From a virus (Duplodnaviria > Caudoviricetes), in IMG/VR virus record IMGVR_UViG_3300037067_012889, positions 32,001 through 96,000 of that record: a stretch of 64,000 nt of DNA. The stretch is one strand, 5' to 3'. The notes beneath the pieces are model-generated. The model worked only from the letters and a program-made list of their open reading frames with translations, ran no database searches and had not been told where the DNA came from. A program made the translations under genes and the position numbers. Shown piece by piece: positions 32,452-61,616 of the stretch (position 1 is the first letter of the stretch; each line of letters starts with the position of its first letter).

Positions 32452-32631
32452 ATGCCAACACTGGCACAAGCAATCCGACAGAATCTCGTGCAGGCTGCAG
32501 AGCACACGTACGGTTCGTGTGTCGTGGAATTCGAAGGCCGCGAAGTCTCCTTCCGTTGGCGGGACGGAGTGGCGACCGTCGAAGACGGCGAAACCGAGCG
32601 TAGATTCCGTATCGAGGTCGTAGAGGAGTAG
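32452..32631 (+). CDS. Small hypothetical protein (59 aa)
   Basis: Hand-translated MPTLAQAIRQ...; AGGAG RBS. Confidence 0.65.
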   Translation: MPTLAQAIRQNLVQAAEHTYGSCVVEFEGREVSFRWRDGVATVEDGETERRFRIEVVEE

Positions 32632-32637
32632 TCCAGG

Positions 32638-32652
32638 TTTCCATCGTGGAAA
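32638..32652. repeat. TTTCCA-N3-TGGAAA palindrome
   Basis: TTTCCATCGTGGAAA, 6 nt after stop. Confidence 0.85.
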
Positions 32653-32668
32653 ATTGTGGAGATCATGT

Positions 32669-32866
32669 ATGTCTATAAACGTCATTCGTGGCGACAGGAT
32701 CGAACTCCTATCCATGTCAAACGATCCGCACCCAATCGAAACTGGGGCGCGAGGCACGGTGCTTTTCGTGGAGCCGATTGACGTCGGTATCCAAATCGTC
32801 GTCGACTGGGACAACGGCAGAAAGCTCAACCTCATCGTTCCACCCGACAGGTACAGAAAGATCTAA
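32669..32866 (+). CDS. DUF4314 family protein
   Basis: G.RIEL..M.DP.P...G.RGTV..V...I.V.WDNG..L.L...D. Confidence 0.75.
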   Translation: MSINVIRGDRIELLSMSNDPHPIETGARGTVLFVEPIDVGIQIVVDWDNGRKLNLIVPPDRYRKI

Positions 32867-32873
32867 TCCGAGG

Positions 32874-32913
32874 TTTCCAGCGTGGAAACAAACACCTATC
32901 ATGGTGCTATAAC
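32874..32913 (+). promoter_or_regulatory. Palindrome overlapping -35 of promoter
   Basis: TTTCCAGCGTGGAAA-N14-GGTGCTATAAC. Confidence 0.75.
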
Positions 32914-32929
32914 AACATAGAGGGACATC

Positions 32930-33145
32930 ATGCCAACGAAAAAAGAGCTGCAAGAAGCCTGTCGCAGGTTTGCAATTGAATCAATCAGTGCCGATCATTT
33001 CTTTGATCCCGTCTTCGACCATCTGATGGATAGGATGGCGGATGAAGAGATTGAGCGATTATGCGAATCTGATGACAGGAATGCAGCAGCTCTGGCGGCG
33101 GCACAAGAGATCAAAGCAGCAATCAAATCGCTGCCAATGTTGTGA
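32930..33145 (+). CDS. Small hypothetical protein
   Basis: GAGGG RBS; flanked by 30-bp direct repeats. Confidence 0.65.
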   Translation: MPTKKELQEACRRFAIESISADHFFDPVFDHLMDRMADEEIERLCESDDRNAAALAAAQEIKAAIKSLPML

Positions 33146-33150
33146 TCCGA

Positions 33151-56430: not shown

Positions 56431-56436
56431 TTCCGG

Positions 56437-56451
56437 TTTCCAGAATGGAAA
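56437..56451. repeat. TTTCCA-N3-TGGAAA palindrome
   Basis: TTTCCAGAATGGAAA, 6 nt after stop, upstream of a separate terminator. Confidence 0.85.
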
Positions 56452-56481
56452 GCCGGGAGAGAAATCTCCCGGCTTCTTTTT
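56450..56481 (+). terminator. Rho-independent terminator
   Basis: AAGCCGGGAGA/TCTCCCGGCTT then CTTTTT. Confidence 0.85.
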
Positions 56482-56492
56482 AGGATTATGAA

Positions 56493-56876
56493 ATGAGACT
56501 TCTACTAGAAATGGCTTTTACCAGGGATGGTTTTAAGAATCAGCTTGAACACAAGCTGGTCGGTGCCATTATCCATCATTATCAAGCCGAACTTGCTAAG
56601 GCAAATGGTAAGAATAAGTGGGTGGTACACTGGTCGAACGAATCGAAACGCCTGTTGGTAGAATTCCGAACACTTCTATCTCATAGTATCAAAGGGACAT
56701 GGAGCCGTACAAAAGCTGCTAAAGAGGTAGTCACACTGATGAAGAGAAACGACAAGCAATACCGAAGAGTGGCATATAATGTCGTTTGTCGAGATTTCAG
56801 ATCCAAGCTTTCGAACACGCTACCAGAAAGAACGAAATTCTGGGATAGAGTTGGAGATATTATCTCAGATAGTTGA
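56493..56876 (+). CDS. Hypothetical protein
   Basis: LLEMA N-terminus; HW..E motif. Confidence 0.6.
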   Translation: MRLLLEMAFTRDGFKNQLEHKLVGAIIHHYQAELAKANGKNKWVVHWSNESKRLLVEFRTLLSHSIKGTWSRTKAAKEVVTLMKRNDKQYRRVAYNVVCRDFRSKLSNTLPERTKFWDRVGDIISDS

Positions 56877-56968
56877 TATTCACCCCGCGCTGGTATCGTC
56901 GGGTCAGCCTTCGGGCTGGACAGCCAGAGCAATAAACGAACGAGCCTGAAAAAATTGCTCCCTTTCGG

Positions 56969-57007
56969 GGCGGCGATGCAACGAGTCTCCTGCATCGCCG
57001 CCTTTTT
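56969..57007 (+). terminator. Rho-independent terminator
   Basis: GGCGGCGATGCA/TGCATCGCCGCC then TTTTT. Confidence 0.8.
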
Positions 57008-57024
57008 GTATTTAAATGTATCTT

Positions 57025-57112
57025 GGCCGTGTGGAGAAATCGGTAAACTCAACAAATTTAAAATTTGTCACCTATTCAAACGGGTTTGCGGGTTCGAATC
57101 CCGCCACGGCTA
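57025..57112 (+). tRNA. tRNA-Leu(TAA)
   Basis: GGCCGTG/CACGGCT, ACAAA-TTTAAAA-TTTGT, long variable arm, A73. Confidence 0.9.
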
Positions 57113-57147
57113 CTAACCTCCATTACGTAAATAATGTGGAGGTTCGA

Positions 57148-57840
57148 ATGATACCAGATAATACCCTCTTCGAGATGGCACACGAATCCTATTCAGTATG
57201 CGACGTTATGATAAAGCTTGGCTTAGTACCTGCGGGAGGTAATCACAGATTATACAGCAAGCGGCTTGCAGGATTCGCCTTTAAAAAACGACCACCGTTA
57301 GGTGCTGCGGGTAAGAGTAGGGCAATCATCGATTATCTGGTACTTGACGGTCCGGTGATCTTGACATCCAAGCTAAAGAAGAAGCTATTCAATGCAGGTC
57401 TCAAAAAGAAAATCTGTGAAATATGTGGGCAGGGGCCTGTTTGGAATAATAAACCACTAACCTTCCATCTAGATCATGAAGATGGAAATAATAGGAATAA
57501 TCGATTAGAAAACCTACGTGTTTTATGCCCTAACTGCCACACTCAAACTCCGACGTACGCAATTAGTGTGCAAAGAAAAGAACCCCGAGAAGTAAGAAAT
57601 GGCGTCATAAAACCGAGAAAACTCATAAGATGTAAGTCTTGTGACTGTCGATTGAAGACTCGCAGAAAGACTGGTTTGTGCCGTAAATGCTTCGAAGTTA
57701 AATTTCCACCACCACGCAAAGTGTCGAATAGACCAGAAAAGAACGTACTATTAAAAGAGATAGCCGAAATGGGTTATTGTGGTGTTGGTAGAAAATATGG
57801 CGTATCTGATCACGCTGTTCGAAAATGGGTAAAAACTTAA
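57148..57840 (+). CDS. HNH homing endonuclease
   Basis: CEICG...LDH.DG...NN.LENLR.LCPNCH; C-terminal HTH. Confidence 0.9.
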   Translation: MIPDNTLFEMAHESYSVCDVMIKLGLVPAGGNHRLYSKRLAGFAFKKRPPLGAAGKSRAIIDYLVLDGPVILTSKLKKKLFNAGLKKKICEICGQGPVWNNKPLTFHLDHEDGNNRNNRLENLRVLCPNCHTQTPTYAISVQRKEPREVRNGVIKPRKLIRCKSCDCRLKTRRKTGLCRKCFEVKFPPPRKVSNRPEKNVLLKEIAEMGYCGVGRKYGVSDHAVRKWVKT

Positions 57841-57865
57841 ACACTTACTATTGTCGTGCTATAAC
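57837..57865 (+). promoter_or_regulatory. Phage promoter motif
   Basis: TTAA(stop)-N14-CGTGCTATAAC. Confidence 0.75.
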
Positions 57866-58668: not shown

Positions 58669-59547
58669 ATGGATAAAATGCCCGATCAAGCCGTCGAAAA
58701 TATAGCGGCCCTCTTGGCCGCATCGTATCTGAACAAAGCTGGTGTCATTAGCTGCCAGTTTGTAATCAAACTGAAGCAACAGACGCCTGAAATAATCGCC
58801 GCCACGAATACCAAGCTTGTCGAGATGGGATATCCGGCGTACGACATCGACGCAAAGAAATCTCGCAACCGAAACAAGACGCGAGCACAACCAGCAGGAC
58901 ATCCTATCGCATTGTCTGGCGAGGACGCCGAGAAGGAACGGCAGATCATCGCCATGCTGGAAGAAATCCAGCGAGACAAAAACGCTGCCCAATCGTGGCT
59001 TGATACCGTCATCGGCGCTGAAAACCACTACCAGCAGAAGCTGCATGAACTCCGAGGGACCAAGTTCACCCCAAAACCCGATCCATATGTTGAAATTTAC
59101 GCACCGGCCCACGATCATGCTCGCAACAACCGAGCCGAACTGGCGGCAAGTTCCAAATGCGGTTGTTTCTTCTGCCGAGCCATCTTCGATCCAAAAATTA
59201 TTGCCGAATTCGCCGACAACGGGCAAACGGCCATATGCCCAAATTGCGGGGTCGATTCACTCATCGGCGACAAAGCCGGATACGAACTGAACAACGAATT
59301 TCTTATCGCTATGTTCAGGCGGTGGTTTGCAGTGCCAATCCGGATCCGTAAGATCCGGGAATTGAACCCTATGGCTATTGCACCTCCAACAGTACCTCCT
59401 GCTATTGCACCTCCAATACCTCCTGCACCACCGGCCCCCGAGCCGGAGCCGGAGCCGGAATTGCCCGAAATCGATGACGAGAAGTTGGCCGGTCTTGGTA
59501 GTAAGTTGATTGCCAACCTCCCGGCCGATGACGAAGAGGATATGTAG
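58669..59547 (+). CDS. Hypothetical protein with Cys-rich zinc domain and Pro-rich tail
   Basis: CGCF.C..IF ... TAICP.CG.DS.IGD. Confidence 0.7.
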   Translation: MDKMPDQAVENIAALLAASYLNKAGVISCQFVIKLKQQTPEIIAATNTKLVEMGYPAYDIDAKKSRNRNKTRAQPAGHPIALSGEDAEKERQIIAMLEEIQRDKNAAQSWLDTVIGAENHYQQKLHELRGTKFTPKPDPYVEIYAPAHDHARNNRAELAASSKCGCFFCRAIFDPKIIAEFADNGQTAICPNCGVDSLIGDKAGYELNNEFLIAMFRRWFAVPIRIRKIRELNPMAIAPPTVPPAIAPPIPPAPPAPEPEPEPELPEIDDEKLAGLGSKLIANLPADDEEDM

Positions 59548-59846: not shown

Positions 59847-60200
59847 ATGCCAGAACATGACGAACAATGGCAATGGATTGTCGATCTGACAACCGATGAG
59901 CCGAAGCTACCACCTCGGCCGCAGTCAAAGACCGATAAAGAAGACGAGAGGAAGGTATACGCTCTTCTGCACAAACGCATGTGGACCTGTGCAGAAGAGC
60001 GTATAGGCAGATGGATAGGGTTTGTAACCGCAGTGTTGTTTTGGGGCATGATGGCCATTTCCTATTACAATTACACCATGCAGCCAAAGCCTGTTATGTA
60101 TTATGACGCCGACACTCAGACGATGAAGCCAATTCCTGGACTCTACAAAGTAGGCGGGAAAGAGATGTTTCTACAGGTTAAAGATGAGAAAACAAAGTAG
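59847..60200 (+). CDS. Hypothetical membrane protein
   Basis: One hydrophobic helix. Confidence 0.55.
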   Translation: MPEHDEQWQWIVDLTTDEPKLPPRPQSKTDKEDERKVYALLHKRMWTCAEERIGRWIGFVTAVLFWGMMAISYYNYTMQPKPVMYYDADTQTMKPIPGLYKVGGKEMFLQVKDEKTK

Positions 60201-60354
60201 GATTACCTTCGCAGAACTCGATAAACCCATGCTTGCTTGGTATAGCTTCAAATGGTTTATCATTTGGAGTGGCCGAATCCTGACATTGGGTCTGGCAGTC
60301 ATCGTCGCTATCACTGCTTTGCTGGCGTCCTCTAAGAAATCCGATCAATCTTAA
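60184..60354 (+). CDS. Small membrane protein (56 aa)
   Basis: Hand-translated MRKQSRITF...; TM segment; stop abuts palindrome. Confidence 0.55.
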   Translation: MRKQSRITFAELDKPMLAWYSFKWFIIWSGRILTLGLAVIVAITALLASSKKSDQS

Positions 60355-60369
60355 TTTCCAACTTGGAAA
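60355..60369. repeat. TTTCCA-N3-TGGAAA palindrome
   Basis: TTTCCAACTTGGAAA directly after TAA. Confidence 0.85.
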
Positions 60370-60374
60370 CCACT

Positions 60375-60641
60375 ATGAACGACATCCCCTGGTATCGATA
60401 CCTTCTATTCCCAGTCTGGCTTCTCTTGGTGACCGGACGTTTTGTCGCCAATCTATTCAGGCCAGATCCACCCGATTGGAAAGAAAAGCGAGCCGCATGG
60501 CTGGCAAAAGTAGAGGAGTCGGACGACCGGGCCAGAGCTCTGTCTGAGCTAAGTCCGGAAAATCAAGAGAAATTTAAACATCTCGCTCCTTGGCAGCAGA
60601 AGAAGTTCATAGCTGCTTTGAAGTCTAAGAAATGTATTTAA
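60375..60641 (+). CDS. Hypothetical membrane-anchored protein
   Basis: Fills exactly the space between two palindromes. Confidence 0.6.
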   Translation: MNDIPWYRYLLFPVWLLLVTGRFVANLFRPDPPDWKEKRAAWLAKVEESDDRARALSELSPENQEKFKHLAPWQQKKFIAALKSKKCI

Positions 60642-60656
60642 TTTCCATCATGGAAA
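60642..60656. repeat. TTTCCA-N3-TGGAAA palindrome
   Basis: TTTCCATCATGGAAA directly after TAA. Confidence 0.85.
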
Positions 60657-60671
60657 CCATAAGGATATAAG

Positions 60672-60878
60672 ATGTCTGGGAAGATAGAACTCGGTAAGGT
60701 AGTGGCCGGAACAGCATGTGTCAGAGAAGTCCGGTTAGATCCAGCAGGCAGACCGGTATTCTGCACGAGTTCAGCTGTAATGGCTATCAATACCAAGCCA
60801 CTATGTCAAAGACACGCCCAAGAGGCCATGCTTGCCTTTGAAGCTCAACAGACAGCGACGGCTAACGTGGCGTCTTAA
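60672..60878 (+). CDS. Small Cys-containing protein
   Basis: AAGGA RBS; LC..HA. Confidence 0.6.
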   Translation: MSGKIELGKVVAGTACVREVRLDPAGRPVFCTSSAVMAINTKPLCQRHAQEAMLAFEAQQTATANVAS

Positions 60879-60879
60879 A

Positions 60880-60894
60880 TTTCCAAGGTGGAAA
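60880..60894. repeat. TTTCCA-N3-TGGAAA palindrome
   Basis: TTTCCAAGGTGGAAA 1 nt after TAA. Confidence 0.85.
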
Positions 60895-60908
60895 TTCCAG
60901 GATATGAT

Positions 60909-61091
60909 ATGAATAAACCAGAATTAGATCTACTCAAAGCGGCCAAGGTATTATTAGCCTTGATGGACGATGTCCCACCAGATCCAACGCCGGGACTTAG
61001 TTACGAGCAAAATGACCGTTGTTTTGCTCGTTACGAGTTTGAAGACCTCCGTGCCGCCATCGCTAAAGTAGAAGGCAGCATGGAGGTCTAA
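60909..61091 (+). CDS. Small phage hypothetical protein
   Basis: DLL.AAK..L ... LRAAIAK.EG. Confidence 0.6.
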   Translation: MNKPELDLLKAAKVLLALMDDVPPDPTPGLSYEQNDRCFARYEFEDLRAAIAKVEGSMEV

Positions 61092-61106
61092 TTGTGGCGT
61101 CTTGAA

Positions 61107-61121
61107 TTTCCAAGGTGGAAA
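61107..61121. repeat. TTTCCA-N3-TGGAAA palindrome
   Basis: TTTCCAAGGTGGAAA between convergent stops. Confidence 0.85.
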
Positions 61122-61616
61122 CTACTTACCCATCTTCTTGCGATAATACAGATCGGTTCGCAGTTGCAAGATGTCGGTTCGCCCCAACTTCTTAGCAATC
61201 TTCTTGGTAATGGCCCAAGTAGCGCTCTCGACATACGGGAGCTTCTCGATCACACTGCAGTGACTTGGTTCGAGAGTATGCTTGCATTTTGCTTGGTCGG
61301 ATTTCAGGTCGTGAAACTCCTCCATCTCTGAGTGAGGAATAGACGAGTTACCCTTACTCAATTTGATGACTCCATGCCCCTTGCGATTCGAGGTTGCACG
61401 GACTCCTTTCTTCTTCTCGATAAGCTCATTCAGCTTATCACCAGCGTCGCCTTCCCAACTCGTCTCGCAAATCCAGGAGTCCTCCGTCTTCTTAGGCTTT
61501 GAACAGCCGAGAGGATGATGCTGACCAAGCTCCACGCGATCGATAGAAGTAGCGACCACCAACTCAATAGCCGTCTCACACGAACATTCAACACCATTCA
61601 ACTTGAAGTGATACAT
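61122..61616 (-). CDS. Hypothetical protein
   Basis: 164-aa ORF whose stop abuts palindrome. Confidence 0.6.
   Translation of the reverse strand: MYHFKLNGVECSCETAIELVVATSIDRVELGQHHPLGCSKPKKTEDSWICETSWEGDAGDKLNELIEKKKGVRATSNRKGHGVIKLSKGNSSIPHSEMEEFHDLKSDQAKCKHTLEPSHCSVIEKLPYVESATWAITKKIAKKLGRTDILQLRTDLYYRKKMGK

Follow-up and report, generated by a model that had tools for sequence, protein, structure and literature searches.

A putative single-gene insertion at a conserved palindromic motif in an early operon of an uncultured jumbo phage

We analyzed a 64,000-nt stretch of DNA (hereafter the window), which corresponds to bases 32001-96000 of a 363,885-bp jumbo phage genome held as an IMG/VR virus record and rated 100% complete by CheckV. 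Towards the right-hand end of the window, a run of small plus-strand genes, here called b, c, d, e and X, converges on the minus-strand gene g (Table 1). The stop codons at 60352-54, 60639-41, 60876-78 and 61089-91 are followed by the palindrome TTTCCA-N3-TGGAAA at 60355, 60642, 60880 and 61107, respectively, with gaps of 0, 0, 1 and 15 nt, while the stop codon of g directly abuts the fourth palindrome. The genes of this right array lie on the same strand and are promoterless, and none of its four palindromes is accompanied by a promoter. An initial annotation, made from the letters of this DNA, had described four genes that are each closed by the palindrome and a minus-strand gene that adjoins the last of them, and both descriptions are borne out. 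It had also reported a 28-bp duplication that brackets X and takes in the last codons of the upstream gene e. This direct repeat is indeed present, with 27 of 28 positions identical and a sole mismatch that changes TAA to TGA.

Table 1. Coordinates of the right-array features, given as positions in the window.
Feature	Position	Strand	Description
Gene b	59847..60200	+	117 aa, probable membrane protein; opens the small-gene operon; family-conserved
Gene c	60184..60354	+	56 aa, probable membrane protein; TAA stop abuts palindrome 1
Palindrome 1	60355..60369	.	Centre ACT; between c and d; orthologous site in every relative
Gene d	60375..60641	+	88 aa, probable membrane protein; family-conserved
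Palindrome 2	60642..60656	.	Centre TCA; between d and e; orthologous site in every relative
Gene e	60672..60878	+	68 aa, small protein; last four codons (V-A-S-stop) within repeat copy 1
Repeat copy 1	60867..60894	+	28 bp, comprising a 13-nt flank and palindrome 3 (60880-60894, centre AGG)
Inserted segment	60895..61093	+	199 bp; contains gene X (60909-61091, 60 aa); present in no relative locus
Repeat copy 2	61094..61121	+	28 bp, comprising the flank and palindrome 4 (61107-61121, centre AGG)
Gene g	61122..61616	-	164 aa, family-conserved, convergent with the operon

The palindrome is concentrated in one part of the genome. With at most one mismatch allowed, the window contains 13 sites against 0.32 expected. 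Across the whole 363,885-bp genome, TTTCC-N5-GGAAA is present in 13 copies, all of which fall within window positions 32369-61121, and every other spacer length from 0 to 11 gives 0-1 copies. The excess over expectation, together with the near absence of other spacers, excludes chance. The 29-kb block that holds the palindromes has a raised G+C content. Of the 43 extended -10 boxes in the genome (GTGCTAYAA, most of them with TTAA 15 nt upstream), it contains 24.

Relatives were found on metagenome contigs through homologues of the 292-aa anchor gene located upstream of the array (58669-59547). The nearest of these, L001, shares 78-86% nucleotide identity with the window over 47.7-63.2 kb. A contig from the same study, L036, is ~78% identical to the left array of the window, and L036 and L001 probably belong to the same phage. 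In the seven distant lineages (L003, L007, L009/L010, L017, L019 and L020), the anchor protein is 40-46% identical. The order b, c, palindrome, d, palindrome, e, palindrome and convergent gene is kept in eight further lineages, and the convergent gene is g in all of these except L009/L010. Homology of b, c, e and g across lineages, and of d in some of them, was detected by blastp; matches to b and c were obtained in L001, L003, L007 and L009/L010, and matches to d in L001 and L003, with a positional counterpart of d that has a similar N-terminus in L007, L009, L017, L019 and L020. A reading of the whole array as integron-like cassettes is not supported by the comparison: since c, d and e are syntenic with their palindromes in all relatives, the array is not made up of four mobile cassettes, and three of its four genes are fixed core genes.

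The sole other assembly with an identical anchor protein has the same layout, X included. Single-protein queries with X and g found no match in IMG/VR, and searches of viral and JGI metagenome contigs with the exact 28-mer, the flank plus palindrome, and the 3' end of g found none either, in collections from which this genome and near-identical records may have been absent. A scan with a 17-nt pattern returned 13 loci, each with one site and none with a homologue of e or g, which is consistent with chance matches. As a separate observation, the coding sequence of b includes two perfectly complementary 18-bp arms separated by 14 nt (window 59956-60005). The right arm, which codes for the conserved EERxGRW motif, is all that L001 keeps of this inverted repeat, and the hairpin is thus peculiar to this phage.

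Conservation marks the palindrome as functional, with constraint that differs between its arms and its centre. When orthologous sites of the window and L001/L036 are compared, none of the 8 pairs shows a difference in the ten core bases (80/80 nt), where the surrounding DNA is ~78% identical. The three centre bases of the same pairs match at 12 of 24 positions, and the centres seem to change faster than the neutral expectation. The core is kept at forty sites in eight lineages, among which the arms vary only at the innermost pair and never with a compensating change. Genes of both strands are followed by palindromes, and the stop codon then directly adjoins the site. At five promoter-associated sites (window 32369, 32874 and 33151; L036 1451 and 2139), a spacing of exactly 15 nt separates the palindrome from the extended -10 box, and the palindrome therefore occupies the -35 position at these promoters.

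We considered and rejected a role as an intrinsic terminator, as the predicted RNA hairpins have little stability (typically -3.8 kcal/mol) and are without a U tract, and a terminator scan called none of the four right-array sites. A search for Rfam families over 31-62.5 kb returned only a tRNA. The invariant arms, the free centre of fixed length, the lack of covariation and the fixed promoter register are together better fitted by a dimeric DNA-binding protein than by an RNA structure. The routine job of the palindrome would accordingly be to bind such a protein on the DNA and so control early transcription; a role at the RNA level is also conceivable, given the tight link to stop codons.

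Candidates for the protein that reads the palindrome were sought among the products of the block. Pfam and PHROGs searches with the six operon proteins and g gave no match. Among ~30 further block proteins, Pfam recognized only DUF1257 and DUF2997, with no domain for DNA binding or recombination; the larger ORFs of the window, scanned on their own, added domains of AAA, ligase and helicase type and a weak HNH match, and ParB_N is absent from the genome. Gene g, which lies beside the terminal site, encodes a protein with an N-terminal CxC motif (alignment A1). Its structural model is poor overall (mean pLDDT 56) except for a C-terminal three-helix segment (pLDDT 81-87) that is compatible with a helix-turn-helix (HTH). 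This structure produces weak matches to HTH domains (Z 3-4.2), and a profile search of PDB sequences yielded nothing meaningful. With its modelled HTH-like tail, g is one candidate reader of the palindrome. The e family consists of mini-proteins of 58-68 aa with invariant Cys16, Cys31, Cys45 and His48 (alignment A2), residues that probably form a zinc site. The AlphaFold2 model of e has a pLDDT of 88 and found no match in the PDB with Foldseek.

The junction between e and g exists in an empty, a filled and a differently filled state. In L003, L007, L017, L019 and L020, e is followed by a single palindrome and then by g, with no gene between them, which is the kind of empty junction that the initial annotation had proposed to look for in reads or close relatives. 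The terminal palindrome has the centre AGG in L007, L019 and L020, as do both window copies, and the flank to its left in these three lineages and in L009 is recognisably the one that makes up the 13-nt extension of the window repeat. This shared left flank indicates that the repeat is a duplicated ancestral unit, and copy 2 is the ancestral terminal site between the convergent genes. In L001, two palindromes bracket a slot of 221 bp that is without a convincing ORF and is unrelated to X and to all other relative sequence that was fetched. Homology between the window and L001 ends at 60845 and resumes at 61098, nine bases before palindrome 4, such that the correspondence is lost over 60846-61097. 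The history of these two loci may have involved one insertion before their split followed by replacement, or two separate insertions.

Two further features of the e end were observed. At L001 11962-12164, e is broken by indels into ORFs of 36 and 31 aa, and the stretch surrounding the second conserved cysteine is missing, as in a pseudogene or an assembly error. In three of the empty-junction lineages (L007 8190-8240, L019 4020-4069 and L020 8045-8094), the end of e is overlapped by a GC-rich inverted repeat of 14 bp, located immediately ahead of the terminal palindrome. This stem together with the T-rich left arm of the palindrome looks like an intrinsic terminator; most of it has been lost in the window.

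No homologue of X was detected by blastp in any relative locus. Its only database relative is the C-terminal half of P0018, a 105-aa PF27050 protein, with 81% amino acid identity over that half and 78% nucleotide identity over 113 nt. The gene for this protein adjoins a CsrA gene on unrelated GC-rich contigs that are without palindromes. An ordinary tandem gene duplication, which the initial annotation had set against integration, was rejected: the e and X units are alike only in the 28-mer (global alignment z = 1.7 against shuffles), and the alignment score of the two proteins equals the shuffle mean. From these comparisons, X is a lineage-specific one-gene insertion that appears to have duplicated the ancestral terminal palindrome and its flank.

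Other differences from relatives are linked to the palindrome. In T4-type phages, promoter/stem-loop repeats (PeSL) act as patches of homology for the excision and insertion of small genes, and mini-circles have been detected (Arbiol et al., 2010, PMC2839356; Comeau et al., 2014, PMC4122927). In our dataset, relatives likewise differ by small-gene indels or replacements bounded by the motif at three places, namely the X slot, the left array and position 56437. In the left array, window 32625-33150 and L036 1712-2138 lie between orthologous palindromes and do not align, while both flanks of this swap are ~78% identical. The window has an extra 65-aa gene here (32669-32866) and an extra copy of a palindrome arm plus promoter, which generates a repeat that brackets gene 32930-33145 (25 nt seen directly); L036 2132-2178 aligns to window 32867-32913. 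The product of gene 32930-33145 is 37% identical to its L036 counterpart, and its neighbours are ~80% identical. The promoter of that counterpart (L036 1740-1780) carries a lone right half-site (GGAAA) at -35, 9 nt after a complete palindrome, which could be the relic of a second palindrome. Relative to L001, an insertion in the 56435-57853 region of the window starts 2 nt before the palindrome at 56437 and contains the palindrome, a strong intrinsic terminator and a low-GC ORF of 127 aa. Past a conserved tRNA-Leu, the window also carries an HNH endonuclease gene that L001 does not have.

The coincidence of breakpoints and palindromes was dropped as a statistical argument, since the intergenic DNA of the arrays is mostly palindrome. 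Gene-sized swaps must break between genes, and nearly every gap contains a palindrome, so that the coincidence is weak evidence alone; by a rough estimate, ~4 of 16 boundaries would fall near a palindrome by chance.

The mechanism that we infer for the right array starts from a conserved early operon (b, c, d and e) that ends against the convergent gene g and has a 15-bp palindrome at each gap and between e and g. A foreign 199-bp segment carrying X would have entered at the terminal palindrome in the lineage of this phage and, in doing so, duplicated the palindrome with 13 nt of its ancestral left flank to leave the 28-bp direct repeat. Short-homology recombination at the palindrome unit could have occurred by a single crossover with a small circle, by exchange with a co-infecting relative or by later conversion, and it would have been driven by the phage RecA (present in the genome, E 1e-101) or by host functions, as is the case for PeSL motifs in T4-type phages. 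We assign a probability of roughly 0.6 to the reading that the foreign segment was inserted at the terminal palindrome, most likely via short-homology recombination.

The initial annotation had interpreted the repeat as the footprint of a one-gene circle that integrated by crossover at the site. The insertion of a single gene stands, but a crossover confined to the 15 bp would not be expected to duplicate 13 extra bases on one side, as exchange of the whole unit or conversion from a neighbouring one would. Two points weigh against short-homology recombination. A homology of 28 bp is short for RecA-type recombination. The putative X circle, at 227 bp, would also be smaller than any reported PeSL mini-circle (about 400-1400 bp; Arbiol et al., 2010; Comeau et al., 2014).

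It is possible, if unlikely, that X or a predecessor entered long ago and that gene conversion later copied the terminal unit onto the end of e. The site after e in L001 has another centre (TCC) and another flank while its terminal site matches that of the window, and a two-palindrome slot may therefore predate the split between the two. The C-termini of e in the window and L001 are loosely alignable by eye in the DNA alignment, and the faster-than-background turnover of palindrome centres also speaks for this reading. The single mismatch between the repeat copies, however, suggests a recent event, and conversion would itself be recombination at the palindrome unit, which alters the timing but not the kind of process.

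We similarly doubt that the insertion arose by template switching or slipped repair at a hairpin-forming palindrome, which would have inserted DNA and duplicated the target with neither homologous nor site-specific recombination. Palindromes can extrude hairpins in single-stranded DNA, and X comes from an unrelated GC-rich source that lacks the palindrome, so a homologous crossover would have had nothing to pair with in the donor. Slippage would not, however, usually leave a clean 28-bp duplication whose end coincides with the edge of the palindrome, and the left array, where the other side of the palindrome is duplicated with the promoter, is better explained by exchange between repeated units.

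There is little to recommend integron-like integration, in which a dedicated recombinase would read the palindrome as an attC-like site and integrate one-gene circles, making the four genes cassettes. It would account for promoterless same-strand genes with a site 0-15 nt past each stop codon, for a terminal slot that holds X, unrelated DNA or nothing depending on the lineage, and for the AGG centre of both copies around X. Against it, searches of the complete genome for a tyrosine recombinase (Phage_integrase, PF00589), a serine recombinase (Resolvase) and a Y1 transposase (Y1_Tnp) found no match, while the PF00589 control genomes all matched; an unrecognised recombinase may lie among the many ORFans, as Pfam and PHROGs are blank for most block proteins. 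In addition, c, d, e and their sites keep the same order even at ~45% anchor identity, and the duplication takes in 13 nt outside the site on one side only. Integron attC sites span ~57-141 bp, with paired R and L boxes and a GTTRRRY core, and the element found here is a perfect palindrome of 15 bp. These observations are better accounted for by recombination over short homology at the conserved regulatory motif than by integron-like integration. We hold it to be just as improbable that the palindromes are the sites of an unrecognised phage recombination or DNA-binding machine, in which e or g could take part, that both regulates the 29-kb early block and captures single foreign genes at the terminal site, although this would, if true, amount to a minimal integron-like form of gene capture in jumbo phages that operates without a tyrosine recombinase.

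The locus provides a clean comparative example of the gain of a single small gene in a jumbo phage, in which one junction is seen empty, with X and with other DNA in different lineages. The kind of scar is already known from T4-type phages; its occurrence here would extend PeSL-type modular shuffling to an unrelated family of uncultured jumbo phages and to a motif whose probable function is protein binding, not termination. It raises the question of what reads a palindrome that is present in 13 copies in one early block and has an unchanged core at ~45% identity of the neighbouring protein.

With respect to the routine role of the palindrome, one possible model by analogy is the stoperators of Cluster A mycobacteriophages, which are asymmetric, oriented with transcription and bound by the monomeric immunity repressor of a temperate phage (PMC9283540; PMC6550527). 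In both cases, many copies of a short site of protein-binding type occupy short intergenic gaps, with some at promoters and most not. Unlike stoperators, the palindrome is symmetric and adjoins genes of both orientations, and searches of this phage revealed neither a repressor nor an integrase. The Mor and C activators of phage Mu offer another comparison, since they are small proteins that have a C-terminal HTH and bind dyad sites at the -35 position of promoters that lack a -35 box (PDB 1rr7 and 9l0x). Three promoters in the window have the palindrome at -35, and the modelled g shows weak structural matches to these activators. These matches (Z 3.2-3.5) extend over only ~45-50 residues and tie with those to many unrelated three-helix domains, and g has no sequence-family match; a Mor/C-like activator role for g is thus a lead only.

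The right array resembles an integron in having promoterless same-strand small genes, each directly 5' of an imperfectly conserved palindromic site, and in the variability of its last position. It differs in that an IntI-type integrase is lacking (no PF00589 match in the complete genome), in that the site is 15 bp without R and L boxes and the duplication reaches outside it, and in that the order of c, d and e is fixed in all eight related lineages while only the terminal slot varies.

The closest parallel is with the PeSL of T4-type phages, from which the present motif is nonetheless distinct in several respects. PeSL stems are GC-rich, whereas the motif described here is AT-rich, a perfect palindrome of 15 bp whose core is invariant and whose centre is free. 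It is kept across a whole jumbo-phage family, and its weak RNA fold makes it unlikely to be an intrinsic terminator. The four right-array copies are promoterless, and most of the genes flanked by palindromes are conserved core genes and not ORFans. In both systems, small early genes without an assigned function are separated by copies of a short regulatory motif, and the left-array palindrome is, like a PeSL, fused to a promoter, in this case a sigma-70-like one with an extended -10 box. In both, recombination proteins are invoked rather than a dedicated recombinase, close relatives differ by single small genes that have been gained, lost or replaced between copies of the motif, and duplicated motif copies bracket the gene that was gained.
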